Shown: positions 1-18,911, counted from the stretch's first letter. The stretch: 27,042 nucleotides of DNA from Arenicellales bacterium (GCA_036479635.1 JAZGFQ010000157.1:1-27042), one strand, 5' to 3'. Notes: generated from the letters alone by a model not told the origin. Program-made: numbers and translations.

Positions 1-1505
1 GTTTTATCATTTTTTATAATGCGAGAGGATTGCGCTGCCTGTGCACCGTTCATGACACCATCCGCTTGAATCACGCCCGCTAAAAATAATGTCGCGATGG
101 CTTCAATAATGCCCGAGCCACAAATACCGGTAACGCCCGTTTTTTTGGCTTGCTCAGGAAATGATGCCTCATCCGACCATTCCTCAATGCCAATCACCTT
201 AAATTTAGGCTCTAAGGTAATTGGATCAATGCGTACTTTTTCGATTGCGCCCGGCGCGGCACGTTGCCCATGTTCAATTTGTGCGCCCTCAAAAGCAGGG
301 CCTGTCGGTGCAGAGGCTGACACGCATTTATCTTTATTGCCTAAAATAATTTCTGCATTTGTGCCGACATCTATGATTAAAGTAATCGCCTCTTGTTTAT
401 ATGGCGCTTCCGATAAAGCCACCGCTGCTGCATCTGCACCGACATGCCCAGCAATGCACGGCAACATATAAAGCCTTGCGCCCTTGGCGAGCGATAGGTT
501 TAAATCTCTCGCTGCTAAATTTAGCGATGCCTGAGTCGCTAAGGCAAAGGGTGCGCCACCCAATTCAACTGGGTCTATGCCTAATATTAAATGATGCATA
601 ATCGGGTTGGCGACACAGACAATATCTAAGACATGTTCTACCTCAAGCTTCGCCTGTAATAACAAATCTTCAATCACGGCATTAATGCCATCACGCACGG
701 CTTGAGTCATTTCCACATCGCCCCCCGCGTTCATCATGGCATACGAAACACGGCTCATCACATCTTCACCAAAACGAATTTGCGGATTCATTAAGCCACT
801 AGAAGCAAGCACGTCTCCCGTGTTTAAATCACAAAGATGTCCCGCCAGCGTAGTTGAGCCGATATCAACGGCGATGCCATAGCGCTGAGTTTGCTCGCCG
901 GGCCATATCGCAATGACGCGCGTGTCGGCATAAACTGCCAGCGTAACTTGCCATTTCCCTTTACGTAAAACGGACTGCATAACAGGTAAAATAGAGAAAT
1001 CAAACGTAAGGTTTTGCAGGCCAGCTTCAAATTCTATGGCCTCTCTTAATCGCTCTAAATCGCCCGTGGATGAGTCGAGTTGTGGCTCAGCCACATCAAC
1101 GGTATATAATTTTACCGCGGGCTTGGTCTCAATAGTTAATGCGGCCGCTTCTTTACGCACCACTTGTTGGTGCACTTGGCTTTCGGGTGGAATATCTACG
1201 ACCACATCGGCCATAATTTTAGCGCGGCAACCTAAGCGAAAACCTTGGCTTAGTTTAGTACTAGGAAAGAGCTCAATGTCAGCGGTGGTCAATTTCGATA
1301 AATGTGTGCCTTTTGAAGTTATTTGATGCTTAGTAAATTCACCTTCAGAGATTTGAATTTTACATCGACCACAGACCCCGTTGCCCCCACAAACCGTATC
1401 CAAATCTGCGCCAAGCGTGCGTGCAGCGGTTAAAATATCGGTGCCTTTATCAACCTCTCCGCGTATGCCTGAAGGGGTGAAAACGATTTTTACTTTATCC
1501 GTCAC
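1..1505 (-). CDS. ASKHA-domain corrinoid reductive activase (RamA/RACo-like, DUF4445) with N-terminal 2Fe-2S ferredoxin; 3' end runs off the window
   Basis: Not in the ORF track because it is truncated; translated by hand. GTG at 1505 gives MTDKVKIVFTPSGIRGEVDKG...CGGNGVCGRC...RLGCRAKI (2Fe-2S Cys pattern), then YGIAVDIGSTT (ASKHA phosphate-1 motif). The frame is open at both ends checked (GVMNGAQAAQSSRIIKNDK at the window edge). It starts 8 nt after the GFA stop. Confidence 0.9.
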   Translation of the reverse strand, partial: MTDKVKIVFTPSGIRGEVDKGTDILTAARTLGADLDTVCGGNGVCGRCKIQISEGEFTKHQITSKGTHLSKLTTADIELFPSTKLSQGFRLGCRAKIMADVVVDIPPESQVHQQVVRKEAAALTIETKPAVKLYTVDVAEPQLDSSTGDLERLREAIEFEAGLQNLTFDFSILPVMQSVLRKGKWQVTLAVYADTRVIAIWPGEQTQRYGIAVDIGSTTLAGHLCDLNTGDVLASSGLMNPQIRFGEDVMSRVSYAMMNAGGDVEMTQAVRDGINAVIEDLLLQAKLEVEHVLDIVCVANPIMHHLILGIDPVELGGAPFALATQASLNLAARDLNLSLAKGARLYMLPCIAGHVGADAAAVALSEAPYKQEAITLIIDVGTNAEIILGNKDKCVSASAPTGPAFEGAQIEHGQRAAPGAIEKVRIDPITLEPKFKVIGIEEWSDEASFPEQAKKTGVTGICGSGIIEAIATLFLAGVIQADGVMNGAQAAQSSRIIKNDK

Positions 1506-1513
1506 AGTCTTAA

Positions 1514-1918
1514 TTATGTTGGAATATCAAAATAATCACTGGCCTCTTCAGCAAACATATGGCTCACTGTTTTTAAACCTGTGGGCTTATCAAGCGTACC
1601 TGCCATCACGCTGATCTCAGCATTAATCAATCTTTTCCAAAATAGATTGCCGCCACATTTTCCGCAAAACCCACGCTTAAAACCCTGACTAGATTCATAC
1701 CATTTCAAAGTTTCATCTTCAATGAGTTTTAAATTTTTTTCCTTCACCCGCGTTGCCGCCACATGATGCCCGCTGGTTTTTTGGCATTGCGTACAGTAAC
1801 AATTCACCACGCCACGCACCTTGCCTTCAATACGATATTGAACACCACCGCATAAACAACTGCCGTTTAAATCAGCGGTATGATTAAATTTAAGTTTATT
1901 AATCTCTGTTTTTTTCAT
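1514..1918 (-). CDS. GFA / CENP-V family Zn-binding protein (glutathione-dependent formaldehyde-activating enzyme family)
   Basis: GSCLCG, NCYCTQCQK and RGFCGKCG Cys motifs; 134 aa. Confidence 0.9.
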   Translation of the reverse strand: MKKTEINKLKFNHTADLNGSCLCGGVQYRIEGKVRGVVNCYCTQCQKTSGHHVAATRVKEKNLKLIEDETLKWYESSQGFKRGFCGKCGGNLFWKRLINAEISVMAGTLDKPTGLKTVSHMFAEEASDYFDIPT

Positions 1919-1936
1919 CTTATCGTGCCAGTAAAA

Positions 1937-2839
1937 CTATGCTTTCTTCCTGCGCCTCGAACGACGGCGCCCACCTTGCTCATCACCGCCTTCTGCCTGT
2001 TCACGATTGACTGAGATCCATCGAGCACAATGTTCATCATTTCCCATTACCACATCCGCTGCGCGCACCGCTTGTACCACTTCAGAGTGAAGTGGGTTAA
2101 CGATGGCAGAAGTCATTCCTGCTCCCATCGCCATGCTAATAAATGAGGCATTCATGCCGTTACGATTCGGTAATCCGAAACTAAAATTCGACGCACCACA
2201 GGTCGTGTTTACTTTCAGCTCATAACGCAACCGTGTGATAAGTTGCATCACTTGCCTGCCTGCATCATTAATCGCACCCACTGGCATCACTAAAGGATCA
2301 ACCACCACATCTTCAGGCTTAATGCCGTAATCTTGGGCGCGCTCAACAATTTTCTTCGCCACCGCATAGCGAACATCAGGGTCTTCAGAAATACCCGTCT
2401 CATCATTTGAAATCGCCACCACTGCCGCACCATATTTCTTTACCAAAGGAAGCACTTTCTCCATTTGTTCTTCTTCACCTGTGACTGAATTCACCAAGGC
2501 TCGGCCTTGATATACAGACAACCCAGCTTCCAAAGCGGCTATGATGGATGAATCTATCGATAAAGGCACATCGGTGATCGACTGTACTAACTGAATGGTC
2601 TCAGCCAAAATTCTAGGCTCGTCGGCCAGCGGAATACCTGCATTGACATCTAGCATTTGCGCACCCGCCGCAATTTGTGCGCGCACGTCTTTCTCAACAC
2701 GGCTGTAATTACCCACCTTCATTTCCTTAGCAAGAATTTTACGCCCCGTCGGATTAATACGTTCACCAATCATCACAAAGGGTTGATCAAAACCAATAAT
2801 CACTTCTTTACTTGCCGAACTTAAACGTGTGTGTGTCAT
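1937..2839 (-). CDS. Stand-alone pterin-binding methyltetrahydrofolate:corrinoid methyltransferase (MetH pterin domain / AcsE-like)
   Basis: MIGERINPTGRK, LDVNAG, PLSIDSS, LVNSVTGE, VVDPLVMP and GASNFSFGLP motifs of the DHPS-fold MeTr family; ends in an Arg-rich tail. Confidence 0.92.
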   Translation of the reverse strand: MTHTRLSSASKEVIIGFDQPFVMIGERINPTGRKILAKEMKVGNYSRVEKDVRAQIAAGAQMLDVNAGIPLADEPRILAETIQLVQSITDVPLSIDSSIIAALEAGLSVYQGRALVNSVTGEEEQMEKVLPLVKKYGAAVVAISNDETGISEDPDVRYAVAKKIVERAQDYGIKPEDVVVDPLVMPVGAINDAGRQVMQLITRLRYELKVNTTCGASNFSFGLPNRNGMNASFISMAMGAGMTSAIVNPLHSEVVQAVRAADVVMGNDEHCARWISVNREQAEGGDEQGGRRRSRRRKKA

Positions 2840-2865
2840 TTTTTAATCACTTTAAAATATTAAAA

Positions 2866-3885
2866 TTAAGCAGTAGGTTGCCAGGGTTGTCTATCGCCCA
2901 GTACTCCTGATGCTTTCACGATACTCTTAACGGCCTCTTCTTGCCGATACGCCATAATATGCACGCCCGAGACACCCTCAATTTCTTGTAGTTGCTGAAT
3001 AAGCTCTACACAAATCTTTCGTCCTTCAGTTTTTTGTTTTTTGCCTGCGCCTTCTAAACGCTGAATAATCGCATCAGGGATATGAATGCCCGGCACGTTA
3101 TCACGGATCCATGATGCTGATTTAGCCGACGCCATTGGTCCAATACCTGCCAAAATAAAAACATCATCCAACAAACCTAAATCACCGACCTTAGCCATGT
3201 AATCTTTAAACATTGGGATATCAAAGCAATATTGGGTTTGAATAAACTGTGCGCCTGCTTGTATTTTACTGGCCAAACGCTGTGCACGAAAATCTGCGGG
3301 CGGCGCAAAAGGGTTGGCGGCTGCGCCGATAAATAATCTTGGCGGCGTGTCTAAATCACGGCCGCTCAAAAAGCGGCTTTCATCGCGCATCATCTTGACT
3401 GTTTTTAATAAGGTCATTGATCCTAAATCAAACACCGGCTTTGATTCTGGATGATCCCCTGCTAATACACCATCACCCGTTAAGCACAAAACATTGGCTA
3501 CTCCAAAAGCAGCGGCGCCTAAAATTTCGCCTTGAATAGCAATACGATTTCGATCTCGGCAGGCCATTTGCAGCACCGTTGAGTAACCTTTGCGCGCAAG
3601 TAATGCACTCACGGCAATGCTCGACATATGACAATTCGCGCCTGAACCATCGGTGGCGTTAATGCCATCAACGACACCATCAAACATCGCCGCACGGCGA
3701 TACACTTCATTCGGGTCTGCAGAATCTGGAGGCGCGAGTTCTGAGGTTACCGCGAAAGCGCCTGAACGTAAAACACGCTCTAATCTCCCCGGTGAACTAT
3801 GGCCTTTTAGAATCGCTAAGTTTTCCCCAGCCCTAGGTTCATCTACATTGGTCTCATCTACAAGAACGTCATCAAGATCCGACAT
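2866..3885 (-). CDS. metF: Methylenetetrahydrofolate reductase (MetF-like, MetV-associated type)
   Basis: VTSELAPP, NATDG, CRDRNR, LTGD and FIQTQYCFD motifs. Start placed at ATG 3885 (MSDLDD), which overlaps the upstream stop (TAATG). The track's 4053 start overlaps the upstream gene. Confidence 0.88.
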   Translation of the reverse strand: MSDLDDVLVDETNVDEPRAGENLAILKGHSSPGRLERVLRSGAFAVTSELAPPDSADPNEVYRRAAMFDGVVDGINATDGSGANCHMSSIAVSALLARKGYSTVLQMACRDRNRIAIQGEILGAAAFGVANVLCLTGDGVLAGDHPESKPVFDLGSMTLLKTVKMMRDESRFLSGRDLDTPPRLFIGAAANPFAPPADFRAQRLASKIQAGAQFIQTQYCFDIPMFKDYMAKVGDLGLLDDVFILAGIGPMASAKSASWIRDNVPGIHIPDAIIQRLEGAGKKQKTEGRKICVELIQQLQEIEGVSGVHIMAYRQEEAVKSIVKASGVLGDRQPWQPTA

Positions 3886-4367
3886 TAATTTTGCTCTGCA
3901 TCTTGATGCTTTAAACGCACTGCCCTTAACCAAGAAGAGTGGCCCGCTAAACGATGATCCACTGGGAATTGCACCGCTAAAATTGAGCTGACAGGCGCAT
4001 CTTGCTTGCCCGCGCCTGTCATTAATTGCTGCCCGCGCCAGGCTTCCACCCATACGCAGTTCATGTTTTCATCTAACTCACACTTTCCATTTGCGCGCAC
4101 GCCACCACAAGGGCCATTGCGTAATTTCTTAGGGCAATTCATCGGGCAAGACATACCTGTATCATGTAAAGCACATTGGCCGCACATCTGGCAATCGAAC
4201 AAAAAACCTTTAACATGCTTCTCTATAAAGGCGAGTGGCTTTTCTACGCGCTCATAGCCTAGCTTCATCCAGAAGGGCTCAAGCCAAACCAGCACCTTCT
4301 CTAATTTTTGATAAATAAAATCAAATTTAGCCGCACGTGAAACCGACCACTTACGCATAAGATACAT
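3885..4367 (-). CDS. MTHFR C-terminal-domain / MetV-like Cys-rich protein
   Basis: Eight Cys in CQMCGQC...SCPMNCPK...GPCGG...KC...NCVW. Start placed at ATG 4367 (MYLMRKW), 1 nt after the upstream stop. Confidence 0.88.
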   Translation of the reverse strand: MYLMRKWSVSRAAKFDFIYQKLEKVLVWLEPFWMKLGYERVEKPLAFIEKHVKGFLFDCQMCGQCALHDTGMSCPMNCPKKLRNGPCGGVRANGKCELDENMNCVWVEAWRGQQLMTGAGKQDAPVSSILAVQFPVDHRLAGHSSWLRAVRLKHQDAEQN

Positions 4368-4368
4368 T

Positions 4369-4686
4369 TTATGATGTCGCGATGGATAGCGCTGGAGTAA
4401 CGCCCTTATTTTTAATGATCCTCTCCAATAATTCATCGCTGTATGCCGATTCAATTTCTGCAGTCTTTGCTTTTACTATGGCCTCCATTTCACCCGCAAT
4501 TTTTTCATTCACACGCTGCCAATCATCGATATAAGCATCCGCATCTATTTTTTTTGCGCGCATTGCTGCGCGATCAATCGCAATTTGAAAACGGTTTGAT
4601 AATTGATGCCTAACGCGGTTACGCCCTTGTTTGGCCATGACCTGCGCAGGAATATCACGCCAATATATTATGATTAAATTAGGCAT
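4369..4686 (-). CDS. 'Virulence factor' family small protein (PF13769-like), function unknown
   Basis: IIYWRDIPAQV...RFQIAIDRAAM...DAYIDDW signature; overlaps the DUF1638 stop by 8 nt. Confidence 0.8.
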   Translation of the reverse strand: MPNLIIIYWRDIPAQVMAKQGRNRVRHQLSNRFQIAIDRAAMRAKKIDADAYIDDWQRVNEKIAGEMEAIVKAKTAEIESAYSDELLERIIKNKGVTPALSIATS

Positions 4687-5317
4687 AGCGGTGTTGCGGC
4701 ACAGAGACGTTCATCGTTTGGTTTAAAGTACTGCCTAGTGCACCATATTCAGTATAGTGATATTCAAAAGCTAGGCCCAATGTTTGAGCATGTTGCTCGG
4801 CTAAAATTTTTAAAGTTTCTGAAGGTGTTTGTGCAAGATAAACCAGTTTTTTATAGTTGCCAAAATACATCTCTAGCAATTCAGGTTTACGATCCAATCC
4901 TAAAGCGCGCCAAACGTAAGTATCAAAATGCTGTGTTAAGAAATCGGTTAAATAAAACGTGCCTAACTCCGCTTCATGCAAAGCCGCAAATTGTGCGCTG
5001 CCTGCAAAAAACTCATAGCAGTGTGCGCCCGGTAAACGGCTGATGTTTAACTTGGTTTTTTGTACTGCCTTTTCAATCACGCTATCCAGCCTTCCGCCTG
5101 TACCGCAATCACCATAAGCGATTAATATGTCATGGTTGTTTTTTGCATGAATTTTATCAATCGCCACCTCAACTGCCTGCGGAATCTTATCTGGGGTTTG
5201 ATGATAATGTGCTGGCAAACACGTTACATTCATTTCATTCCAGCCATTCAGCTTTTTTAAAGCAATCAACTCATTTGCCAATGCACCGCAAGCTAAAATA
5301 TTTAAAGGCTTTAACAT
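4679..5317 (-). CDS. DUF1638 protein (corrinoid-system accessory)
   Basis: ILACGAL, LPAHYH..P, YGDCGTGG, GAHCYEFF and GTFYLTDFL motifs. Confidence 0.88.
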   Translation of the reverse strand: MLKPLNILACGALANELIALKKLNGWNEMNVTCLPAHYHQTPDKIPQAVEVAIDKIHAKNNHDILIAYGDCGTGGRLDSVIEKAVQKTKLNISRLPGAHCYEFFAGSAQFAALHEAELGTFYLTDFLTQHFDTYVWRALGLDRKPELLEMYFGNYKKLVYLAQTPSETLKILAEQHAQTLGLAFEYHYTEYGALGSTLNQTMNVSVPQHRYA

Positions 5318-5335
5318 AGCTTATTATTCTAACGT

Positions 5336-6043
5336 TTAGGCCGCTCGGCGCGCAGCGATTAACGCATTCGCGATATCAACGGTTGACGCGGCATCCCGAC
5401 AATACGAATCAGCACCCACCGCATCACCGAATTCTTCATTCAACGGCGCACCGCCGACTAAAACAATATATTTATCTCTAAGGCCTTGGTTAACCAATTC
5501 ATCAATCACGACTTTCATATAAGGCATGGTGGTGGTCAACAGAGCGGACATGCCTAGGATGTCTGGCTTATGCTCTTCTAGTGCTGCAAAGTAATCTTCC
5601 ACGGTGTTGTTAATGCCAATATCAATCACTTCATAACCCGCGCCTTCCATCATCATCCACACCAGGTTTTTACCGATATCATGGATATCTCCTTTGACTG
5701 TACCAATCACCATCTTCCCCGCGCTTGAACCTTCTGACTCTGATAGCAAAGGTTTTAAAATCGCCATTCCGCCTTTCATGGCATTGGCAGAAGATAAGAC
5801 CTCTGGCACGAATAAAATACCGTCTCTAAAATCAACGCCTACAATTGTCATGCCGCCGACTAAGGGTTCATTTAAGACCTTATCTGCAGACCAACCACGC
5901 TTTAGTAATATCTCCGTGCCTTCAATGACCTCTTCGCGTAAACCGTCGTACAAATCATCTTGCATTTGTTCAACCAGCTCATCATCGGGCAGGGCATTTA
6001 AATCTATGTCTTCATCATCGAAATTGTCGTCTTGCTCGCTCAT
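5336..6043 (-). CDS. Stand-alone cobalamin-binding (corrinoid) protein with B12 cap and Rossmann domains
   Basis: GTVKGDIHDIGKNLV (DxHxxG base-off His-on motif), GMSALLTTTM and VLVGGAP; preceded by a helical cap. Start at ATG 6043 (GTG 6052 is an alternative). Confidence 0.95.
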   Translation of the reverse strand: MSEQDDNFDDEDIDLNALPDDELVEQMQDDLYDGLREEVIEGTEILLKRGWSADKVLNEPLVGGMTIVGVDFRDGILFVPEVLSSANAMKGGMAILKPLLSESEGSSAGKMVIGTVKGDIHDIGKNLVWMMMEGAGYEVIDIGINNTVEDYFAALEEHKPDILGMSALLTTTMPYMKVVIDELVNQGLRDKYIVLVGGAPLNEEFGDAVGADSYCRDAASTVDIANALIAARRAA

Positions 6044-6271: not shown

Positions 6272-7894
6272 TTACAGCGAGCGTAATTCTTCACGCAAGC
6301 CTTTAAAGATCGAAACACACATCAGCAGCAGGATAATCGCAAATGGCAGCCCCGTCGCCACCGAGGCGGCCTGCAGGGCCACGAGGCCCCCACTCCAAAG
6401 TAAAACAATCGCAATAGCGCCTTCGAATAAACACCATAGCACCCGTTGAGCGACAGGCGCATCAATTTTGCCGCCCGCCGTGATCGAGTCTATGACGAGG
6501 GAACCTGAATCAGAAGAGGTGACAAAAAAGGTAATGACCAATACGATGCCAATAAATGATAATAAGCCCGCTAATGGAAAACCGCCATCGAACATAGTGA
6601 ACATCGCCTTGGCATAGCCGTTATTCACTTGCTCAGCCAATGCGCTGTTATAAACGGTTGTTGTTGCTGCTGGATCCTCTGCAGTCGGCGCGGCTACCGA
6701 GACAATCGCATTTTCTAAACTACCCGCTTGTGATATCACTTGATCAATTGCTGAACCACCAAAAGCGGACATCCATAAAATAGAGACAATAGTGGGTACA
6801 ATCAATACGCAAGTAACGAATTCTCTAACAGTACGGCCTTTAGAGACGCGCGCAATAAACATGCCCACAAAAGGTGACCAAGCAATCCACCATGCCCAAT
6901 AGAACGTCGTCCAATCGTGTAAAAAACCGGTGTCTTCACGGCCTACCCAATTACTTAGAGGCACAATGTTTTTAGCATAAGCCGCTGTATTACTGAAAAA
7001 GCCTTTAATGATTTCCATGGTTGGGCCGAGAACAATCACCGCCACCATTAATAATAAAGCCAAAATAATATTAAATTCACTTAAACGTTTTACACCTTTA
7101 TCTAAGCCTGCTACCACTGATGCCAATGCGGCAAATGTGATCAATACAATCAAAATCGTTTGTGTCATCGCGCCGACTTCTATTCCAAACAAATAATTTA
7201 ATCCCGCATTCGCTTGTTGAGCACCTAAGCCGAGAGATGTTGCCAAGCCGAAGATCGTTGCAAACACCGCGAGAATATCGATAACATGACCAACCCAACC
7301 CCAGACTGCTTCACCAAAAATAGGGTAAAAAGCGGAGCGTATGGTTAAAGGTAGCCCACGGTTATAAGTGAAAAAAGCTAAGGCCAAGCCCACAACGGCA
7401 TAGATCGCCCATGGGTGTAAGCCCCAATGAAAGATGGTAACAGCAAAGGCCATTTCGCGGCTTTCGCTCACGCCTAATGGCGCGTAACCCCACACACCTG
7501 CAGCATAGACCACAGGCTCTGCCACACTCCAGAACATCAAACCAATGCCCATGCCCGCAGCGAATAACATCGCAAACCATGAGAGCCGCGAATAATCAGG
7601 CGTGGCATCTTTCCCGCCTAACCGTACTTTACCCATAGGCGAGACGATCAAAGCAATACAAAATAAAACGAAAATGTTACCTGCTATTAAAAAGAACCAA
7701 TCAAATTGGCTGGTAATGCTTTTGCGTAAGCCACCAAAGAACTCGCCCGCCGCTTCACCTGCCACCACCGACGCCACTAGAAACAAAATAATGACGATGG
7801 TTGATATTAGAAAGACGGGGTTGTGGATATCTAGGCCCCACATTTTGACGTTATCTTGCCCGACTTTATAGTCTGTTGTTTTTACTTTATTCAT
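6272..7894 (-). CDS. BCCT family betaine/choline/carnitine transporter (betaine-type signature)
   Basis: WFAMLFAAGMGIGLMFW, FHWGLHPWAIY, WTTFYWAWWIAWSPFVGMFIARVSKGRT and FFVTSSDSG motifs; about 12 hydrophobic segments. Confidence 0.96.
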   Translation of the reverse strand: MNKVKTTDYKVGQDNVKMWGLDIHNPVFLISTIVIILFLVASVVAGEAAGEFFGGLRKSITSQFDWFFLIAGNIFVLFCIALIVSPMGKVRLGGKDATPDYSRLSWFAMLFAAGMGIGLMFWSVAEPVVYAAGVWGYAPLGVSESREMAFAVTIFHWGLHPWAIYAVVGLALAFFTYNRGLPLTIRSAFYPIFGEAVWGWVGHVIDILAVFATIFGLATSLGLGAQQANAGLNYLFGIEVGAMTQTILIVLITFAALASVVAGLDKGVKRLSEFNIILALLLMVAVIVLGPTMEIIKGFFSNTAAYAKNIVPLSNWVGREDTGFLHDWTTFYWAWWIAWSPFVGMFIARVSKGRTVREFVTCVLIVPTIVSILWMSAFGGSAIDQVISQAGSLENAIVSVAAPTAEDPAATTTVYNSALAEQVNNGYAKAMFTMFDGGFPLAGLLSFIGIVLVITFFVTSSDSGSLVIDSITAGGKIDAPVAQRVLWCLFEGAIAIVLLWSGGLVALQAASVATGLPFAIILLLMCVSIFKGLREELRSL

Positions 7895-9813: not shown

Positions 9814-9820
9814 TTAATGT

Positions 9821-11092
9821 TTACCCGAACTTCATGTTATCAATTCCCACCACTTTATCGTAGAGGATATATAAAGCTAACACCAGCATCAGTAACATCG
9901 TGCCCAATGCCGCCGCTAAGCCCCAATTAAGCGAGCTTGAAATATGATACGCAATGAAATTACTGATCATGGTGCCGTCGGTGCCGCCCACTAACGCTGG
10001 CGTAATGTAAAAACCGATTGATAAAATAAACACTAAAATACCGCCCGCACCAATACCGGCAACTGTGTTTGGAAAATACACGCGCCGAAATGCGGTGAAA
10101 GGGGTCGCACCCATTGAGCGCGCTGCGCGCATATAGCTCGGCGGAATGGTTTTCATCACACTGAATAATGGCAGAATCATAAACGGCAATAAAATATGCG
10201 TCATGGCAATGATGGTGCCAGTTTGGTTATGAATCATCGATAAGCGATTTTCATCAGAGATGATATTTAAGCCCACTAGGAAATCATTAATCACGCCTTC
10301 TTTTTGTAACAAGGCAATCCATGCGCTGGTGCGCACTAACAGGGATGTCCAAAAAGGTAGCAGCACTAGAATCATCAATAGATTACTGGTGCGGGTTTTC
10401 AAAGTGGCCAACAAAAAGGCAATCGGATAACCCAGCAACACGGTAAGGGCAGTAATCAGCGATGCCAGCCACATGGTTCTGGCAAAGAGCTTTAAATAAA
10501 TTTGTTGGTTCTCAGGCTTAAAGTGCAAGCCTGAAGCATCACGTTTGGCATCAAACGCAGCATAATAATAAGAAGCCGTTTTAGCACCACTTTCACGTTT
10601 TAATAACCGCCATACATCAACATCATGCCACTTTTTATCGATGCCTAATACCGCCTCTTTATAACTCATACCTGTGCTTTCAGGGTCTAGCTTACGCAAG
10701 GTTCTCGCGGTTTTTCGAAATAAACTCGACATACCCGAGCGCTCATAATTTAAACGCTTACCAAGCCGATTGATGGCTTTGCCGATATTCTTGCCATCGA
10801 TAACGAAGGCTTTAAAAATGGCCTCATCTGGTAATTCACCCGTGGTGTCGTCCCATTCGGATAATAATTGTACCGTGGTGGGCAAGGTATCTTGTGTGAC
10901 TTTATTATCGACACTGCGTAGTAGCATATCGAAAATAGGCCCAAGGAAAGTGAGTAAAATAAACAGAAATAAAGGCGCGACTAATAATAAAGCCGTGCGC
11001 TTACGTTTTCTGAGCGAACGCTGCAAACCCACCTTTAACGATACACCGTCGGCAGTGGTTAAAACATCGATGTTGGAAGGCGCTGGATTCAT
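9821..11092 (-). CDS. potB: Polyamine-family ABC transporter permease (PotB-like) with a long soluble insertion
   Basis: LLPFWTSLLVRT, HILLPFMILP, AARSMGATP and GFYITPALVGG motifs. Confidence 0.92.
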   Translation of the reverse strand: MNPAPSNIDVLTTADGVSLKVGLQRSLRKRKRTALLLVAPLFLFILLTFLGPIFDMLLRSVDNKVTQDTLPTTVQLLSEWDDTTGELPDEAIFKAFVIDGKNIGKAINRLGKRLNYERSGMSSLFRKTARTLRKLDPESTGMSYKEAVLGIDKKWHDVDVWRLLKRESGAKTASYYYAAFDAKRDASGLHFKPENQQIYLKLFARTMWLASLITALTVLLGYPIAFLLATLKTRTSNLLMILVLLPFWTSLLVRTSAWIALLQKEGVINDFLVGLNIISDENRLSMIHNQTGTIIAMTHILLPFMILPLFSVMKTIPPSYMRAARSMGATPFTAFRRVYFPNTVAGIGAGGILVFILSIGFYITPALVGGTDGTMISNFIAYHISSSLNWGLAAALGTMLLMLVLALYILYDKVVGIDNMKFG

Positions 11093-11110
11093 AAATTATT
11101 TTTAATTTTT

Positions 11111-11172
11111 CTCAATTTCAAGGTTTAATCAAATAATTAAAGCTTGAAATTGAGCCGGGGAAAGCCCCGACT
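11111..11172 (-). other. Intercistronic tandem stem-loops 3' of the solute-binding protein gene
   Basis: 19-bp stem with one mismatch (11111-11154: CTCAATTTCAAGGTTTAAT / ATTAAAGCTTGAAATTGAG), overlapping a 9-bp GC stem (11151-11172; on the minus strand GAGTCGGGG-CTTT-CCCCGGCTC with one U:G pair). Confidence 0.7.
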
Positions 11173-11204
11173 CAAAAATCTTACTTAAACGTTAAGTCAG
11201 ACGA

Positions 11205-12311
11205 CTAAGACTTCGCTAACCAAGCTTCAAAACGCTCTGTTAACTCATCTTTATTATCCGCCCACCAAAGCACGTCTTTCAAGATAACGTTCTTAGCATT
11301 CGCCGGTGCAGTTGGCATATGCGGCGCCATATCAATCCCTAGCTCAGCGTGCATACCCACCATGCCAGCAGATGACTTACGCGCAGGGCCGTAAGAAATA
11401 TACTTTGCTTGGTCTGCTAAACGCTGTGTATCCGTTGCATACTTAAGATACTTCATCGCTTCAGCTTTATGCGGCGCACCTTTAGGAATCGCCCAGCCAT
11501 CTAATTCAAATACTTGATAATCCCAAAGCATACCAATCGGCTGCTTGTTCTCTTCAATCGCTGCAAATAAACGACCATTATAAGCAGACGCCATGACCAC
11601 TTCACCATCGGCTAATAATTGGCCTGGCTGTGCGCCTTTCGTCCACCAAACAACTTGGTCTTTAATGGTATCCAACTTAGCAAATGCACGATCAACGCCT
11701 TCAGGTGTAGATAGTGTGTCATAGACTTTTGCAGGATCAACGCCATCAGCGATTAATGCCCATTCCATGTTAGCCGCAGGCTTTTTCTCTAACGCACGCT
11801 TACCTGGGAATTTTCCAAGGTCAAATAAGTCATTGATTGTGCTTGGTGCAGATGCGCCCACTTTATCGGTACGATAGCCTAACGTCGTTGAGTAAACGAT
11901 TTGTGGCACGAAACAAGGTGAAACTAATGAATCACCAAAATCGTCAGCTGCAGACGTGCCATCAGGCGCAGCCGCTAAATCAGTGGCTGGATTAATCTCT
12001 TCAATTAAGCCTTCATCGCATAATGCAATCGCATCACCGGGAAGAATATCTACGACATCCCAAGTGGTGTTACCTGCTTCAGCTTGAGCGCGAATTTTTG
12101 CCGCACCTTCTGAAGAAGAATCATCATTGATGATTTTGATACCAGGATTGGCCGCCATGTATGGGTCATGGTAAGCTTTTTGCTGGCTGGCTGTGTAAGC
12201 ACCGCCCCAAGAAACAATCACCATTTCAGTGTCAGCCGAAGCCGTCGTAACGCTCGCTGAACCCACTGCAATTGCAGCTGCGATTAGGGTTTGTGTAAAG
12301 ACTTTTTTCAT
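11205..12311 (-). CDS. ABC transporter solute-binding protein, PotD/PotF superfamily (SWGG subgroup)
   Basis: Signal peptide MKKVFTQTLIAAAIAVGSA; VSWGGAY, WDVVD, KFPGKR and AYNGR motifs; GAGGAG RBS upstream of ATG 12311. Confidence 0.9.
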   Translation of the reverse strand: MKKVFTQTLIAAAIAVGSASVTTASADTEMVIVSWGGAYTASQQKAYHDPYMAANPGIKIINDDSSSEGAAKIRAQAEAGNTTWDVVDILPGDAIALCDEGLIEEINPATDLAAAPDGTSAADDFGDSLVSPCFVPQIVYSTTLGYRTDKVGASAPSTINDLFDLGKFPGKRALEKKPAANMEWALIADGVDPAKVYDTLSTPEGVDRAFAKLDTIKDQVVWWTKGAQPGQLLADGEVVMASAYNGRLFAAIEENKQPIGMLWDYQVFELDGWAIPKGAPHKAEAMKYLKYATDTQRLADQAKYISYGPARKSSAGMVGMHAELGIDMAPHMPTAPANAKNVILKDVLWWADNKDELTERFEAWLAKS

Positions 12312-12353
12312 TTTATTCTCCTCGTTTAATATAAATTTTAAGTCATGTATCAA

Positions 12354-12380
12354 TGTGGCCTAAAAAATTTTAAGGCCACA
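12354..12380 (-). other. Intercistronic stem-loop between potA and the SBP gene
   Basis: TGTGGCCT ... AGGCCACA 8-bp perfect stem extended by A/T pairs; no strong U-tract on the coding strand. Confidence 0.55.
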
Positions 12381-12421
12381 AAATTGGGTCATTATTATGA
12401 ACGGCTCAGATAAACCATAGA

Positions 12422-13522
12422 TTAATCAGTTGGATCTAAAGCACGGCAATCATCGGCATTCCAGCCAATGTTCACCTTATCGCCCACGGTTAAATGTGCG
12501 TGCATAGCTGAATTGGGGATTTTCACGATAAAATCTTCATGCCCGCATACCTTCATACGAGTTCGGATGTGATCACCTAAATAGATAAGCTCTAACGCCT
12601 CGGCTGTAAAAATATTTTTATATTGCCCAGCTTCTGGGTTCACCGCCACACGCTCAGGGCGTAAAGACATCGTCGCGCGCTGGCCAACGCCTGCAATGTT
12701 CACTTGCTTAGCGGTAATCTCACCGCCATCATCGGATTTAACTTGGCAATATTCACCATCGGCACTCACGACCGTACCTAATAGGCGATTATTGTCGCCA
12801 ATAAAATCTGCCACAAAAGCATTAGTCGGCGCTTCATATAGTTCTGCAGGCGGCGCAAGTTGCTGCACCACACCATCATCGAACACCGCGACGCGGTCAG
12901 ACATCGTCAAAGCTTCGCTTTGATCATGGGTAACGTACATTACCGTGACTTCTAAATTCTCGTGAATATGTTTGATTTCATATTGCATCTGCTCACGCAA
13001 GTTTTTATCCAGCGCGCCCAACGGCTCATCCATCAGCACTACGTCTGGATCAAACACGAGCGCACGTGCTACTGCCACACGCTGAGCTTGTCCGCCTGAA
13101 AGTTGGCCCGGGCGACGGTCCGCAAACTCATCTAAGCGCACCATTTCTAAGGCGCGCTTAACCTTCGCTTCGCGGTCAGATTTTCCCATGCCACGCACTT
13201 CTAATGGAAACGCTAGGTTTTCACCCACCGTCATGTGCGGGAATAAAGCATAATTCTGAAACACCATGCCAATGCCACGCTTATGCGGCGGCACATTATT
13301 AATGGGCTGGCCAGCAAGATAAATCTCGCCATGTGTGGCAGGCTCAAAGCCCGCCAACATCATCAAACAAGTGGTTTTACCTGAGCCAGAAGGGCCAAGC
13401 ATGGTCAGGAATTCGCCTCGTTGCATATCCAAATTAAAGTCTTTGACCACGAGAATCTCGCCATCATAACTTTTTTGGACATTTTCGAAACGAACTAAGA
13501 TATCGCTCGCAGGTGCAGGCAT
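12422..13522 (-). CDS. potA: Polyamine-family ABC transporter ATP-binding protein (PotA-like)
   Basis: Walker A GPSGSGKT, Q-loop MVFQNYALFPH, signature LSGGQ, Walker B VLMDE, C-terminal TOBE-like region. Confidence 0.95.
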   Translation of the reverse strand: MPAPASDILVRFENVQKSYDGEILVVKDFNLDMQRGEFLTMLGPSGSGKTTCLMMLAGFEPATHGEIYLAGQPINNVPPHKRGIGMVFQNYALFPHMTVGENLAFPLEVRGMGKSDREAKVKRALEMVRLDEFADRRPGQLSGGQAQRVAVARALVFDPDVVLMDEPLGALDKNLREQMQYEIKHIHENLEVTVMYVTHDQSEALTMSDRVAVFDDGVVQQLAPPAELYEAPTNAFVADFIGDNNRLLGTVVSADGEYCQVKSDDGGEITAKQVNIAGVGQRATMSLRPERVAVNPEAGQYKNIFTAEALELIYLGDHIRTRMKVCGHEDFIVKIPNSAMHAHLTVGDKVNIGWNADDCRALDPTD

Positions 13523-13620
13523 ATTTATAATAATTGTTATGCAGTCTGCACGTTAACGCATCAAAAAATTTAAGTCAAACAGCAGATGCTAATACTTAAA
13601 TATAAATTCACGCTCCGCTA

Positions 13621-13646
13621 CGACCCTTACATTCAAGCTTGCGACA
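13621..13646. promoter_or_regulatory. Candidate AraC/GlxA (GATR)-family operator in the divergent potA/soxB region
   Basis: CGAC-N17-CGAC on + (minus strand TGTCGC...GGTCGT); same 21-bp period as the site at 6119-6144. Confidence 0.5.
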
Positions 13647-13711
13647 AGAGGAATATCATGGCCCTATTTAGCTATGATAGCATTCGCACTTAATTTTTAT
13701 TCTTACGCTAA

Positions 13712-14965
13712 TTGCCGGTGAAAAACAAATATTCCATTTTCAGCCTTGCCCGTAATGCCCTGTCATATCACCAAAAATGGCAGCATACTTGGCGCAACCC
13801 TGAACCCAAAAAACACTATGATGTCATCATCATCGGTGGCGGTGGGCACGGCTTAGCCACGGCTTATTATTTAGCCAAAGAATGTGGCATTACCAATGTG
13901 GCCGTGCTGGAAAAAAGCTGGCTGGGCGGCGGTAATACTGGGCGCAACACTACGATTGTGCGCTCAAATTATTTATGGGATGAATCGGCTGCTATTTATG
14001 AGCATTCCATGAAGTTATGGGAAGGATTGAGCCAAGATCTAAACTATAACGTGATGTATTCCCCGCGCGGCCTCATACATGTTGCGCACAGCGTGCATGA
14101 TATGCAAGAAATTCAGCGCCGAGGTAATGCAAATTTCTTAAACGGCATTGATGCCGAATTTCTCACCCCTGAACAAATTCAAGCGCGCGTACCGTTTATT
14201 AATCTTGATTGCCGTTACCCTGTCATGGGCGGTATTCTGCAAAAACGTGGTGGCACCGCAAGACACGATGCCGTGGCGTGGGGTTATGCGCGCGCAGCGG
14301 ATGCAATGGGTGTGGACATCATTCAAAACTGTGAAGTCACAGGTTTTAACATCAGCGATGGCAAAGTCATCGGCGTGCAAACTAGCCGTGGAAATATTGG
14401 CGCGAATAAAGTGGGGGTAGTCACCGCTGGGCATTGCAGCGTATTGGCGGAAATGGCGGGCTTTCGCTTGCCGGTTGAATCTTTCCCATTGCAAGCCATG
14501 GTTTCTGAGCCTGTTAAGCCGATTGTTGATTGCGTGATTATGTCCAACGGCGTGCATGCTTATATCAGCCAATCAGATAAAGGCGAATTGGTCATTGGTG
14601 CAAGTTCCGATACCTATACTTCTTATACGCAAACAGGCGGTTTTAACGTAATCGAAGAAACCATCGGCGCGATTGTCGAACTTTACCCTGCTTTTTCGCG
14701 CATGAAAATGTTGCGTCAATGGGGTGGTATTGTCGATGTCACCGTTGATCGCTCACCGATTTTATCTAAAACCCCTGTTGAAAATTTAATGTTTAATTGC
14801 GGCTGGGGAACAGGTGGTTTTAAAGCCACACCAGGCTCGGGCAATGTATTTGCGCATTCGCTGGCCAAAGGTGAAATGCACCCTTACGCTGCGCCTTTTT
14901 CAATCGACCGATTCCACAGCGGTGCGCTGGTGGATGAAGGCGCGGCTGCAGCGGTGGCACACTAA
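13712..14965 (+). CDS. soxB: Heterotetrameric sarcosine oxidase subunit beta
   Basis: [49 protein letters not shown] and [17 protein letters not shown] start; GTG 13718 is an alternative. Confidence 0.97.
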
Positions 14966-15008
14966 TGCAACGCGCTCATTTAATTCACACGAAAAGAAGT
15001 TAACTACA

Positions 15009-15293
15009 ATGTACATGATTAACTGCCCTTGGTGCGGCACACGTGACCAAGCTGAATTCGTCGCGCATGGTGAAGCACACATCGCTCGCCCCGAGCAGCC
15101 CGACGCTTTAACTGACGAAGCATGGGGTGATTACATTTTCTTTCGCGATAACCCCAAAGGCTTACACTTTGAACGCTGGGTGCATACCCACGGCTGCAGG
15201 CGTTGGTTTAATGTTGCCCGCAACACGGCGAATTATGAGATTTATGCTTCTTATAAGCCAGATGAAGCCAAGCCAGAGGTGCCACAAACATGA
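15009..15293 (+). CDS. soxD: Sarcosine oxidase subunit delta
   Basis: CPWCG ... FRDNPKG...ERWVHTHGCRRWFN Zn motif. Start placed at ATG 15009 rather than the track's 14814. Confidence 0.95.
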   Translation: MYMINCPWCGTRDQAEFVAHGEAHIARPEQPDALTDEAWGDYIFFRDNPKGLHFERWVHTHGCRRWFNVARNTANYEIYASYKPDEAKPEVPQT

Positions 15294-18200
15294 GCGCCAC
15301 GAGAACCAGCAACACAGGGCAACTTAACCGCCAACAGCCTTTATCTTTTCAGTTTAATGGCCAGCCCTATACGGGTTTTGAAGGTGACACTTTAGCCTCT
15401 GCCTTATTAGCCAATAATGTTTTTTTAATTGCGCGCAGTTTTAAATATCATCGCCCACGCGGTGTCTTTTCAGCAGGCTCTGAAGAGCCGAGCGCATTGG
15501 TTCAACTCGAAACAGGCGCGCATACCTTGCCCAACTGCCCTGCGACTGAAATCGAATTATACGACGGCCTGATCGCGCACAGCCAAAATTGCTGGCCTTC
15601 GGTTAAATATGATATCGGTGCGGTCAATAATGTTTTATCGCGCTTATTCCCGGCGGGCTTTTACTATAAAACCTTCATGTGGCCCAAAGCCTTATGGATG
15701 AAATATGAACACGTCATTCGTCATTCCGCGGGCTTAGGTAAATCGCCTACGGTAGCGGACCCAACGAATTACGACCATCAACATCTTTATTGTGATGTAT
15801 TAATTGTCGGTGGCGGCAGTGCAGGTTTAAGCGCGGCATTGGCGGCAGCGAAAACAGGTGCAGAGATTCTACTCATCAATGATCAAGCCGAGTGGGGCGG
15901 GGCATTATTAAGCGATACGCAAACCATCAATGATGCGCCCGCATTAGATTGGATCAATCATGCCATTCACACCTTAACGGAAATGCCGAACGTTCGCCTG
16001 CTGGCGCGCACCACCGTCACGGGTTATTACCACCACAACTACCTCATTGCTAATCAACGTATCACCAACCACTTGGGGCCAACTGCCCCCACCGATATCC
16101 CGCGCGAACGCTTATGGAAAGTTCGGGCGCGTAAAGTGGTGCTGGCTACGGGCGCAATCGAGCGGCCATTGGTGTTTGCTGAAAATGATCGGCCAGGGGT
16201 GATGCTCGCAGGCGCGGTGAGAAGCTTTTTAAATCGTTATGGGGTGTTGCTTGGTCAAAATATCGTTATTCTCACCAATAATGATTCAGCTTATGCATTA
16301 GGCATCGACGCGCTTGCCGCCGGTGCAAATGTGACCGTGCTAGACACGCGCACGGACATTTCTGATGACTTACTGGCGCTCACTACTCAACACGCTTTGA
16401 GCATTCAGCTCAACAGCACCATTATCGACGTTAAATATAAAGGCACCATTCAAAGTGTTGACGTTGCAAAACTGAATCAAGATGGTAGTGATATCGTCTC
16501 TAAACCTGAAACCATTCCTGCAGATATCGTCGCGTGTTCTGGTGGTTGGACACCCACTTTACATTTATATAGCCAAGCAGGTGGCAAACTTAAATTTGAC
16601 CCAGACACACATAGTTATCTGCCAGATGAGGCACAAACCCTCGCGCCTGATGCGCAATTTGCAGGCAGCTGCATCGGTGCATTTGCGTTAGAGGATTGCC
16701 TCGCTCAAGGGCATGCGACTGGCCTAAATGCTGCAGAGCAATGTGGTTTTAAAACCGATGGCATCAAGGTTGATGCATTGAACACAGCATCTCAACTTGT
16801 CTGTAATGAATTGCGGCCTTTGTGGGTACTGCCCTGCGCGCACCCCATTGGCAATGGCCCGAAAAAGCACTTCCATGAATTACACAACGATTCCACCATT
16901 GCCGATATTGCGCTGGCTGAACGTGAAAATTTTATTTCAGTTGAGCATTTAAAACGCTACACCACCACTGGTATGGGCACTGACCAAGGCAAAACATCCA
17001 ATGTAAATGCCTTGAATGTAATGGCGGCTTTAAGAAACAAGCCCGTTGGCGAGATCGGCACCACCACCTTCCGCCCACCGTTCACGCCGCTCACCTTTGG
17101 CGCGATTGTGGGGCAAAATTGTGGTGATTTATTTCTACAAAAACGCACCTCGCCGATGGAGCCTTGGCACCAAGTTCGAGGCGCACAGTATGAAGATGTT
17201 GGTGACTGGAAGCGCCCGCGTTATTTTCCTAGATCGGGCGAGAATATGGATGAAGCCGTGCAAAGAGAATGTAAAGCCACGCGCGATTCTGTGGGCATTT
17301 TAGATGCCACCACTTTAGGCAAAATTGATATTCAAGGTAAAGATGCCGCCAAACTTTTGAACATGGTTTACACCAATGCGTGGTCAAAACTGGGGGTCAA
17401 CCGCTGCCGTTATGGCATCATGCTCAACGAACACGGCATGATTATTGATGATGGCGTGACCACTCGCCTAAGCGAAAATCATTTCCATATGACCACCACC
17501 ACCGGCGGCGCAGCACGCATTTTTAACTGGCTGGAAGAATTACTGCAAACAGAATATCCGAACTGGGAAGTATATTGCACTTCCGTGACCGAACAATGGG
17601 CGGTGATGGCCATCAACGGCCCCAAGGCGCGCGATTTATTAGCCAAGCTCACCGATGCCGATTTAAGCAATGAGAGCTTCCCATTCATGGCCATGCTTGA
17701 AACTGAAGTGGCGGGCGTACCTGCACGGATATATCGCATCAGCTTCACGGGCGAGTTAGCCTTTGAGATCAACGTGCCTGCACGTTATGGCTTGCATGTG
17801 TGGGAAGCGGTGATGGCCGCGGGTGAGCAATATAATATCTGCCCTTACGGCACCGAAACCATGCATGTGCTGCGCGCTGAAAAAGGCTTTATTATTGTCG
17901 GGCAAGATACCGATGGATCGGTCACGCCAGACGATGCAGACATGAACTGGATCGTCTCAAAAGTCAAAAAAGATTTTATCGGCAAGCGTTCTTTAAGCCG
18001 TAGCCATACCGCTCAAGCAGGGCGAAAGCAATTAGTTGGCCTGCTCGCGGAAGACCCCAGTTTTGTATTGCCCGAAGGCGCGCATATTGTTGATGGAACA
18101 AACACCGCCCCGCCAATGAAAATGCTCGGGCATGTTACCTCTAGTTATTTTAGCCCCAATACTGGGCACTCGATTGCCATGGCCATGCTTAAAGATGGGC

Positions 18201-18328
18201 ATAAGATAATGGCCAAGGGGCAAATGGGCAAATCGCTTTATGTCGCACTGATGGATGGCAGCCGCCAGAAAGTCACTGTAACAGGTTCTGTGTTTTTTGA
18301 TAAAGAGGGGGTACGTAGCCGTGGTTAA
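15290..18328 (+). CDS. soxA: Sarcosine oxidase subunit alpha
   Basis: GDTLASALLAN, RSFKYHRPRG, GFYYKTFMWP, NAD-binding GGGSAG, HLKRYTTTGMGTDQGK and a GcvT-like folate-binding C-terminus; ATGA overlap with soxD. Confidence 0.97.
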   Translation: MSATRTSNTGQLNRQQPLSFQFNGQPYTGFEGDTLASALLANNVFLIARSFKYHRPRGVFSAGSEEPSALVQLETGAHTLPNCPATEIELYDGLIAHSQNCWPSVKYDIGAVNNVLSRLFPAGFYYKTFMWPKALWMKYEHVIRHSAGLGKSPTVADPTNYDHQHLYCDVLIVGGGSAGLSAALAAAKTGAEILLINDQAEWGGALLSDTQTINDAPALDWINHAIHTLTEMPNVRLLARTTVTGYYHHNYLIANQRITNHLGPTAPTDIPRERLWKVRARKVVLATGAIERPLVFAENDRPGVMLAGAVRSFLNRYGVLLGQNIVILTNNDSAYALGIDALAAGANVTVLDTRTDISDDLLALTTQHALSIQLNSTIIDVKYKGTIQSVDVAKLNQDGSDIVSKPETIPADIVACSGGWTPTLHLYSQAGGKLKFDPDTHSYLPDEAQTLAPDAQFAGSCIGAFALEDCLAQGHATGLNAAEQCGFKTDGIKVDALNTASQLVCNELRPLWVLPCAHPIGNGPKKHFHELHNDSTIADIALAERENFISVEHLKRYTTTGMGTDQGKTSNVNALNVMAALRNKPVGEIGTTTFRPPFTPLTFGAIVGQNCGDLFLQKRTSPMEPWHQVRGAQYEDVGDWKRPRYFPRSGENMDEAVQRECKATRDSVGILDATTLGKIDIQGKDAAKLLNMVYTNAWSKLGVNRCRYGIMLNEHGMIIDDGVTTRLSENHFHMTTTTGGAARIFNWLEELLQTEYPNWEVYCTSVTEQWAVMAINGPKARDLLAKLTDADLSNESFPFMAMLETEVAGVPARIYRISFTGELAFEINVPARYGLHVWEAVMAAGEQYNICPYGTETMHVLRAEKGFIIVGQDTDGSVTPDDADMNWIVSKVKKDFIGKRSLSRSHTAQAGRKQLVGLLAEDPSFVLPEGAHIVDGTNTAPPMKMLGHVTSSYFSPNTGHSIAMAMLKDGHKIMAKGQMGKSLYVALMDGSRQKVTVTGSVFFDKEGVRSRG

Positions 18329-18911
18329 GCCTATTTCAATGAGCCCACTTTCAAGCGTTACCGCCATCACCAGTGTGCATCGTTTGCATGAAGTCTCCTC
18401 GATGGCAAAGATTAATCTTCGCGGTGATGCAAATAACCCCGCTTTTGCTAAGGCCATAAAATCTGCCCTAAATCTATCGCTGCCCACCGAGGCGAATACT
18501 TGCGCACACGCCCAAGCGGAATCTACTGTTTTTTGGCTAGGCCCAGATGAATGGTTAGTGCATACGCCGCTAGATGCCTTACAAAAAACACTGACGACGT
18601 TACGTAACGCCACCGAACCTTTACACGCGGCGATCACTGATGTCAGTGATTATTATTTAGTCTTAGAATTATCCGGGCCACAGGCCAGAAGCATCCTCGC
18701 CAGTGGCACCTCTTTTGATATACGCACAGCCTCTTTTAAACCCGGGCAATGCGCGCAAACTCTTTTCGGTCATGCCTCGATTTTGCTTTGGCCTGTTGAT
18801 GATACACCGACTTTTTGTATTCAAGTACGCTGGAGTTATGCGCAATATCTGTTTACCTATTTAAGCAATAGCCTGCATAACGCCGAAAACCTAATGAACT
18901 TTAAGGCTTAA
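18321..18911 (+). CDS. soxG: Sarcosine oxidase subunit gamma
   Basis: WLGPDEWL, DVSDYY, FKPGQCAQT and RWSYAQYL motifs. GTG at 18321 follows GAGGGG and overlaps the soxA stop. Confidence 0.92.
   Translation: MVKPISMSPLSSVTAITSVHRLHEVSSMAKINLRGDANNPAFAKAIKSALNLSLPTEANTCAHAQAESTVFWLGPDEWLVHTPLDALQKTLTTLRNATEPLHAAITDVSDYYLVLELSGPQARSILASGTSFDIRTASFKPGQCAQTLFGHASILLWPVDDTPTFCIQVRWSYAQYLFTYLSNSLHNAENLMNFKA

Follow-up and report, generated by a model that had tools for sequence, protein, structure and literature searches.

The stretch analysed here, hereafter the window, is the whole 27,042-nucleotide contig C157 (GCA_036479635.1 JAZGFQ010000157.1:1-27042) of a metagenome bin from a marine gammaproteobacterium of the Arenicellales (2.0 Mb in 321 contigs, 88.6% completeness, 45% G+C). 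It carries an operon for cobalamin-dependent methyl transfer, accompanied by genes for a BCCT-family transporter and a sarcosine oxidase, and the operon is probably the core of an aerobic glycine betaine demethylase. Eight genes lie on the minus strand in the order MtgC-DUF1638-PF13769-MetV-MetF2-MtgD-GFA-RamA (Table 1). When the most plausible start codons are taken, the intervals between successive genes, going from MtgC to RamA, are 18, -8, 1, -1, 26, 18 and 8 nt, in keeping with an earlier note on this DNA which had described eight same-strand genes separated by 26 nt or less, or overlapping. The gene families named in that note were all matched at their positions by the Pfam and NCBIfam models with which families were called throughout this work.

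Table 1. Genes of the window (positions counted from its first nucleotide) and open reading frames occupying the reductase slot in five related loci
Feature	Position	Strand	Match
RamA/RACo-type ATP-dependent reductive activase of corrinoid proteins	3-1505	-	Fer2, RACo_linker, Raco_middle, RACo_C_ter
GFA-family (PF04828) small zinc/Cys protein	1514-1918	-	Pfam GFA 77.9 bits
MtgD, methyltetrahydrofolate:corrinoid methyltransferase	1937-2839	-	Pterin_bind 108 bits; PRK07535 360.6 bits, cut-off 259
MetF2, flavin subunit of type-3 (MetVF-type) methylenetetrahydrofolate reductase	2866-3885	-	Pfam MTHFR 123.6 bits
MetV-like Cys-rich small subunit	3885-4367	-	Pfam PF12225 86.7 bits
PF13769 protein, 105 aa	4369-4686	-	Pfam 79.3 bits
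DUF1638 protein	4679-5317	-	Pfam 93.4 bits
MtgC, stand-alone cobalamin-binding protein	5336-6043	-	B12-binding_2 (PF02607) + B12-binding (PF02310)
BCCT-family transporter	6272-7894	-	Pfam BCCT 594 bits
Membrane protein, COG3904/ClpP-like C-terminal domain	8016-8825	-	look-alikes in atlas
PotABCD-like ABC importer, four genes	8923-13522	-	Pfam
Importer, permease	8923-9813	-	
Importer, permease	9821-11092	-	
Importer, SBP_bac_8 binding protein	11205-12353	-	
Importer, PotA-like ATPase	12422-13522	-	
soxBDAG, heterotetrameric sarcosine oxidase	13712-18911	+	Pfam DAO, SoxD, GCV_T/SO_alpha_A3, SoxG
soxB	13712-14965	+	
soxD	~15015-15293	+	
soxA	15290-18328	+	
soxG	18297-18911	+	
Type-4 slot open reading frame	L028:11622-12611		
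Type-4 slot open reading frame	L029:11624-12619		
Type-4 slot open reading frame	L036:11776-12702		
Type-4 slot open reading frame	L045:11999-12985		
Type-4 slot open reading frame	L067:4732-5667		

MtgC is composed of a cap and a Rossmann domain with the DxHxxG motif, and is 70-83% identical to its relatives in about 600 genome stretches, whose hosts are Gamma-, Alpha- and Betaproteobacteria and Actinomycetota. Among these are Roseobacter-group loci of Ruegeria, Tritonibacter, Epibacterium and Marivivens ordered HcyMT-MtgC-DUF1638, with 73-77% identity. MtgD is 64-88% identical to its orthologs in related operons, and it shares 62-66% with the one match that each of five f204 genomes contains (a family inferred to be Rhodobacteraceae). 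RamA begins with an N-terminal 2Fe-2S ferredoxin domain and scores under the cut-offs of the NCBIfam AcsV and RamA models. Its 3' end runs off the contig, which leaves it about 170 residues short when compared to a relative; the ortholog in related loci L008 and L093 is 72% identical and runs further, and the remainder of the C-terminus was searched for in the genome bin and not found. The corresponding domains of the same genome's MetH are distant, MtgC being 35% identical to its B12 domain and MtgD 30% identical to its pterin domain. An origin of the operon by recent fragmentation of MetH was considered and ruled out, these values standing against more than 70% to the MtgC and MtgD orthologs.

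Eighty related loci were fetched, of which 63 hold MtgC, MtgD and RamA together. The order MtgC-DUF1638-PF13769-(MTHFR)-MtgD-RamA, where MTHFR stands for methylenetetrahydrofolate reductase, is found in 63 of the 80, and the operon-bearing loci span Gamma-, Alpha- and Betaproteobacteria and Actinomycetota. Because the gene order recurs in this number of loci and in four bacterial classes, the arrangement is not due to chance. Within the 63 loci a DUF1638 gene is present in 58, PF13769 in 55, MetV-MetF2 in 32 (MetV always together with MetF2), a dimethylglycine dehydrogenase (DMGDH)-like gene in 11, soxB in 10 and a GFA gene in four. GbdR-like AraC/DJ-1 regulators adjoin the operon in about 24 of the 80 loci, the closest relative included. 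A synteny survey across Alpha- and Gammaproteobacteria, as the earlier note had asked for, connects the operon with MtgB, sox, DMGDH and GbdR-like regulator genes. Two of the loci with an operon of this type belong to cultivable hosts, Amphritea sp. HPY (L010) and Halomonas lysinitropha (L017). The nearest locus, L008, lies on a chromosome of Candidatus Poriferihabitaceae (Arenicellales, Gammaproteobacteria) and agrees with the window in gene order between the ABC importer and RamA, both included, the remainder of the window being syntenic too. The lineage has sponge-associated bins as its closest relatives.

The slot between PF13769 and MtgD is occupied by a reductase of two subunits. MetF2, directly upstream of MtgD, has the MTHFR half of PRK08645 as top NCBIfam match and shares 26% identity with the canonical MetF of the same genome; its start codon (ATG) overlaps the stop codon of metV, the translation of which contains a Cys-rich stretch. 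A PF02219 subunit together with a Cys-rich PF12225 subunit identifies the pair, from sequence alone, as a type-3 (MetVF) enzyme. In related operons the slot is filled by MetV-MetF2 in 32 cases and by an S6MTHFR-type protein in 11, and both are found together in none. The alternative protein has about 320 aa, and its profile matches PDB entry 7xg9 (S6MTHFR, type 4) with 269 bits. The profile of the window's MetF2 retrieved from PDB distant MTHFRs only (best 54 bits), 7xg9 not being among the matches. S6MTHFR oxidises methyl-tetrahydrofolate (CH3-THF) and pairs with THF-dependent demethylases (Yu et al. 2025, PMC11868366). Because MetVF and the type-4 enzyme replace each other in the slot, the acetogen-type MetVF of the window would likewise work oxidatively, converting CH3-THF to CH2-THF.

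The BCCT gene is found 228 nt upstream of the corrinoid protein gene on the same strand. The transporter passes the TIGR00842 model (455 bits, cut-off 407) and by its sequence appears closest to the glycine betaine uptake types, OpuD-like. SoxB passes TIGR01373 with 714.7 bits (cut-off 529), and the soxBDAG genes are on the opposite strand. The earlier note had placed a betaine-type BCCT and soxBDAG next to the operon, and this holds with the BCCT gene directly upstream and soxBDAG 7.7 kb away.

The genome background was surveyed for methionine synthesis and for the other parts that a demethylation pathway would use. MetH is complete, although split by the assembly between contig C54 and contig C271, which carries the reactivation domain, and it adjoins the canonical MetF. 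With a full MetH, which the earlier note had proposed to look for, and a canonical MetF elsewhere, the operon is not the sole methionine synthase; the genome differs in this from those of the type described by Price et al. 2018, which have no MetH. PurU, FolD and CobS are present. At least three strong matches to haem-copper oxidase subunit I agree with the reasoning, made beforehand from the O2-dependent soxBDAG, that the host respires oxygen. The organism is an aerobe and its methionine synthesis is independent of the operon, and a catabolic role is favoured because methionine can be made without need of it. As to the Rieske-type betaine demethylase GbcAB, whose search had also been suggested, the best match to the GbcB half in the 88.6% complete bin had 53 bits, where the cut-off is 500, and GbcA was not searched. 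A further gene on contig C155 (C155:4644-5549) encodes a 370-aa core-MetE-like protein with PF01717 only, which the genome has besides MetH and the Mtg system.

The methyltransferase that would take the methyl group from betaine was expected to be of the MttB/MtgB family. Two MttB-family (PF06253) genes are present in the genome, neither of them in the window; both are free of internal stops, so no pyrrolysine is encoded. One copy is on contig C44, where the genes run ETF-beta, ETF-alpha, DMGDH-like, MttB, SdaA. The same contig also carries, further on, a LysR gene, an MtgE-like homocysteine S-methyltransferase, a phosphoenolpyruvate (PEP)-mutase-family gene and a creatinase-like gene which is truncated where C44 ends. 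The C44 MttB scores 427 bits against 2qne of D. hafniense, which we take to be the characterised MtgB of that organism (DSY3156), 752 bits against 4yyc and 426 bits against 9yce, whose deposited name is 'Glycine betaine methyltransferase'. Orthologs at least 55% identical to the C44 copy directly flank the operon in 31 of the 63 loci.

In the closest complete relative an MtgB ortholog (84% identical) and sdaA are located 26 kb from RamA. After RamA this relative carries DUF1989 and a divergent GbdR-like AraC/DJ-1 regulator (L093:1513-3312), and after the regulator the creatinase-like, PEP-mutase-family, MtgE-like and LysR genes, which is the end of C44 (L005:7930-12058) reversed. Because the relative's order after RamA mirrors the end of C44, this contig is placed beside the window start, probably just beyond it across a short unassembled gap. 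If C44 does adjoin the window, the two would make up a betaine island of about 40 kb. A GbdR-like regulator was searched for in the incomplete bin and not found, and it and DUF1989 are probably missing since this part was not assembled. Contig C278 ends in a DUF1989 fragment which is oriented as expected, but with an identity of 49% the join is uncertain.

From these data we read the window as the substrate-independent core of an aerobic, cobalamin-dependent glycine betaine demethylase of the MtgBCD type, together with genes for uptake and for downstream steps, and put the probability of this reading at roughly 0.85. Glycine betaine would enter through the BCCT transporter, and MtgB, the MttB-family protein of C44, would transfer one of its methyl groups to Co(I) on MtgC. 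MtgD would then pass the methyl from MtgC to tetrahydrofolate, MetV-MetF2 running in reverse would convert CH3-THF to CH2-THF, and FolD and PurU would complete the oxidation. RamA, with ATP and its 2Fe-2S domain, would return Co(II) to Co(I), probably assisted by DUF1638. The dimethylglycine left over would be converted to sarcosine by the DMGDH and ETF of C44 and sarcosine to glycine by soxBDAG, and SdaA of C44 would turn serine into pyruvate. MtgE of C44 with the same MtgC/MtgD core could also yield methionine, a function which would be redundant here given the complete MetH.

This scheme has a precedent in work on orthologous genes. During growth on glycine betaine Ruegeria pomeroyi induces MtgC, MtgD, two PF06253 MtgB proteins, RamA, DUF1638, MetF2, an OpuD-type BCCT and SdaA; its mtgC and mtgD knock-outs are methionine auxotrophs and do not use betaine even when methionine is supplied, and the same genes frequently share operons with those for the later demethylation steps in further marine members of the Alpha-, Gamma- and Deltaproteobacteria (PMC12478193). 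The pathway proposed in the earlier note, demethylation of betaine onto cobalamin with oxidation of the methyl by MetVF, is therefore supported and equals the model of Mausz et al. 2025 (PMC12478193); it is not new, and in the model organism the core serves methionine synthesis as well. Gene content, order, conservation and orthology were computed here, and it is the literature on the orthologs which shows mtgC and mtgD to be needed genetically both for betaine growth and for methionine synthesis. What we infer is the substrate, the direction of MetVF, what PF13769, DUF1638 and GFA do, and that C44 is linked to the window.

Several observations weigh against the assignment to betaine demethylation. 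The link of MtgB to the operon is by synteny with the relative, as the gene is outside the window, and the host is known from the genes of an 88.6% complete metagenome bin alone. Neither the C44 nor the C217 MttB reaches an NCBIfam equivalog, and the specificity of either is not fixed by sequence. The BCCT transporter, with 538 bits, is under the cut-off of 650 of the betaine_BCCT equivalog. MtgC does not reach the NCBIfam cut-off for MtgC in either of two models derived from anaerobes (NF047996 and NF047995, 208.2 bits versus 370 and 172.6 bits versus 310), and its comparison with the Roseobacter group refers to the loci named above and not to the R. pomeroyi proteins themselves. As to the direction of the reductase, the MetVF enzymes characterised so far are reductive and come from strict anaerobes, and type 3 MTHFR is classed as likely reductive by Yu et al. 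(PMC11868366).

It is unlikely that the core mainly serves another substrate, such as proline betaine, carnitine, choline, trimethylamine or another compound, with betaine being a minor one or none. One argument for it is the second MttB gene on contig C217 (L006, 3-9582), which is a mere 48% identical to the C44 copy and adjoins an OYE/TMADH-type FMN/FAD flavoenzyme, an amino-acid ABC importer and PutA. These neighbours fit a route from proline betaine over N-methylproline to proline, and the cluster suggests a proline-betaine branch; the MttB-flavoenzyme pair is also found in relatives, and a class-wide sample of 150 genera gave no match to the C217 MttB above 52% identity. Multiple MttB paralogs are carried by 39 of 41 relatives, Mausz et al. 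expect several substrates (PMC12478193), the BCCT score stays below the betaine equivalog and the ABC importer has no assigned substrate. On the other hand, the C44 MttB is embedded among dimethylglycine, serine and ETF genes, the soxBDAG of the window acts on a product two steps below betaine, and it is orthologs of the C44 copy, not of the C217 copy, which flank the operon elsewhere. Other substrates are better accommodated as an addition, with several MtgB proteins using one core, than as a replacement of betaine.

Less room still is left for the operon being chiefly a split methionine synthase (MtgC, MtgD, MtgE, RamA, DUF1638) as in Phaeobacter inhibens, for which Price et al. 2018 (PMC5764234) described such a synthase with RamA and DUF1638, with the betaine and sarcosine neighbours lacking catabolic meaning. 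The stand-alone MtgE-like homocysteine S-methyltransferase of C44 would be in its favour. However, the genome already carries MetH in full, reactivation domain included, as well as a canonical MetF, and a split synthase would need neither an oxidising or alternative MTHFR of its own nor BCCT or sox genes. MtgB orthologs, DMGDH, sox and GbdR-like regulator genes flank the operon in many lineages, while MtgE is found in none of the 63 loci holding MtgC, MtgD and RamA and occurs only in Roseobacter-type loci without MtgD and RamA. In addition, MtgBCD but not MtgE is induced on betaine (PMC12478193).

The least probable explanation is that the same C44 homocysteine methyltransferase demethylates betaine directly to dimethylglycine with formation of methionine, leaving the operon a different role: the protein passes the NCBIfam betaine--homocysteine S-methyltransferase equivalog (432.6 bits versus a cut-off of 338), but 'Bhmt' proteins of the S. 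meliloti type are MtgE modules without the betaine-binding residues according to PMC12478193 (the residues of the C44 protein were not inspected), the S. meliloti mutant still grows on betaine given methionine (PMC12478193), and a stoichiometric route is unable to dispose of the methyl groups for growth.

The PF13769 protein, a conserved accessory of the system, has 11 internal positions invariant in its family alignment, and its AlphaFold2 (AF2) model shows an alpha/beta fold (pLDDT 88.9) without a match among solved structures (Foldseek E >0.3; best VIA Z 3.7); profiles of PF13769 and DUF1638 gave matches at chance level only among PDB sequences. In a phylum sample of 300 genomes DUF1638 is carried by all 29 PF13769-positive genomes and by 45 overall, a co-occurrence inflated by kinship since the 29 genomes fall in seven families. 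In the five f204 genomes PF13769 is located about 1 kb upstream of MtgD and away from DUF1638. Because of this placement near MtgD, the protein seems to accompany the MtgD/MTHFR half. PF13769 is listed as a 'virulence factor' family, and its hidden Markov model gave a match in the Bacillus subtilis control genome too. When PF13769 and DUF1638 were modelled as a complex, the score was 0.00 without a verdict from the method and was not used as evidence.

The DUF1638 protein has the invariant residues C10, H39, D70-C71-G72-T73 and H99-C100, and a metal or cofactor site at the invariant Cys and His residues is possible. Its AF2 model (pLDDT 91.8) has a generic two-lobed Rossmann-like fold (Foldseek TM <=0.38; VIA Z <=9.4). 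DUF1638 has been genetically tied to corrinoid reactivation in Phaeobacter (Price 2018, PMC5764234) and is induced on betaine in Ruegeria (Mausz 2025, PMC12478193). The GFA protein matches the broad PF04828 family only, with 20.9 bits against a cut-off of 234.55 for the Gfa equivalog TIGR02820 (S-(hydroxymethyl)glutathione synthase), and is an accessory gene of few operons.

A bolder, rather doubtful extension of the betaine pathway would have three parts: an O2-tolerant, oxidising MetV-MetF2 interchangeable with S6MTHFR, a PF13769 protein acting as a dedicated subunit or adaptor of MtgD/MTHFR, and a single core serving at least two MtgB proteins. As part of it, one MtgB paralog may open an aerobic corrinoid route for proline betaine by way of the C217 cluster.

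Between the BCCT and the sox genes the window carries a COG3904-like gene and the four-gene ABC importer. The importer gave weak PotD/PotF matches only; the block is kept in L008, and in locus L068 a pair of substrate-binding protein and ATPase, 56% and 69% identical to those of the window, adjoins an MttB gene. The protein of the COG3904-like gene has no Pfam or NCBIfam match, is 46% identical to the product of the same-position gene in L008 and has look-alikes in the atlas named COG3904 or Clp-like; it is a membrane protein and probably lies outside the pathway. The remaining part of the window (18983-27042) encodes HPP, NnrS, a repeat-rich lipoprotein with a PG-binding domain, a urate-oxidase-N-like membrane protein, rhomboid, LemA, DUF2207 and a Crp/Fnr regulator. 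Synteny with the relative extends to the majority of these genes, the exceptions being NnrS, DUF2207 and Crp/Fnr, and they appear to have no connection to the betaine pathway. Rfam models matched no RNA family anywhere in the window, and so no riboswitch of the cobalamin or another type, and promoter and terminator scans of the window gave a signal no better than shuffled sequence.

Glycine betaine is a major marine osmolyte and a nitrogen and carbon currency. The MtgBCD route, recently proposed as a main aerobic way of betaine demethylation, ties its flux to vitamin B12. The locus described in this work adds an Arenicellales lineage, and its fully consolidated operon is convenient for heterologous reconstitution. 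It is of modest interest, and this for its accessory parts: PF13769 and the alternative of MetVF or type-4 MTHFR. The points which go beyond the published main text are PF13769, MetV, the alternation of type-3 and type-4 MTHFR and the GbdR-like regulators, the main text of Mausz et al. (PMC12478193) making no mention of MetV, PF13769, GFA or GbdR; the basic picture is unchanged.

When compared to known systems the locus is closest to MtgBCD(E) of R. pomeroyi and P. inhibens. Common to them are MtgC (of the SPO2160/PGA1_c13350 type), MtgD, a PF06253 MtgB in the genome, a RamA-like activase with DUF1638, a second MetF, an OpuD-type BCCT, SdaA and MtgE. In distinction to these organisms, where the core genes are scattered, they are here fused in one eight-gene operon with PF13769 and a GFA gene and with a two-subunit MetV-MetF, perhaps of another MTHFR type than SPO1862. 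The host is an Arenicellales gammaproteobacterium, and it retains MetH, a minority state represented by 28 of 239 metH genomes in the survey of PMC12478193.

With the anaerobic MtgB/MtgC/MtgA systems of Desulfitobacterium hafniense and Methanolobus vulcani and with the systems of the MttB superfamily in Eubacterium limosum the locus has in common the ATP-dependent RamA-type activase and the three-component logic of an MttB-family MT1, a corrinoid protein and a pterin-binding MT2. It differs by its aerobic host and by oxidation of the methyl via THF, which would not be fed to acetogenesis or methanogenesis. According to Mausz et al. (PMC12478193) the aerobic-type MtgC forms a separate clade nearer to CmuA. 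Aerobic demethylation to CH3-THF with a dedicated MTHFR, FolD and PurU is also known from cmuABC/metF2/folD/purU of Methylorubrum extorquens CM4 and from LigM-MetF of Sphingobium SYK-6; the reductases of those systems are type 4 (S6MTHFR) whereas the window has a type-3 MetVF, and CmuA and LigM are unrelated to MttB. In the acetogen MetVF of Clostridium ljungdahlii and Acetobacterium woodii, as in the window, the MTHFR-domain subunit is translationally coupled to a Cys-rich PF12225 subunit, but here the host is aerobic, the gene context is catabolic and the enzyme would be expected to run in the direction of oxidation.

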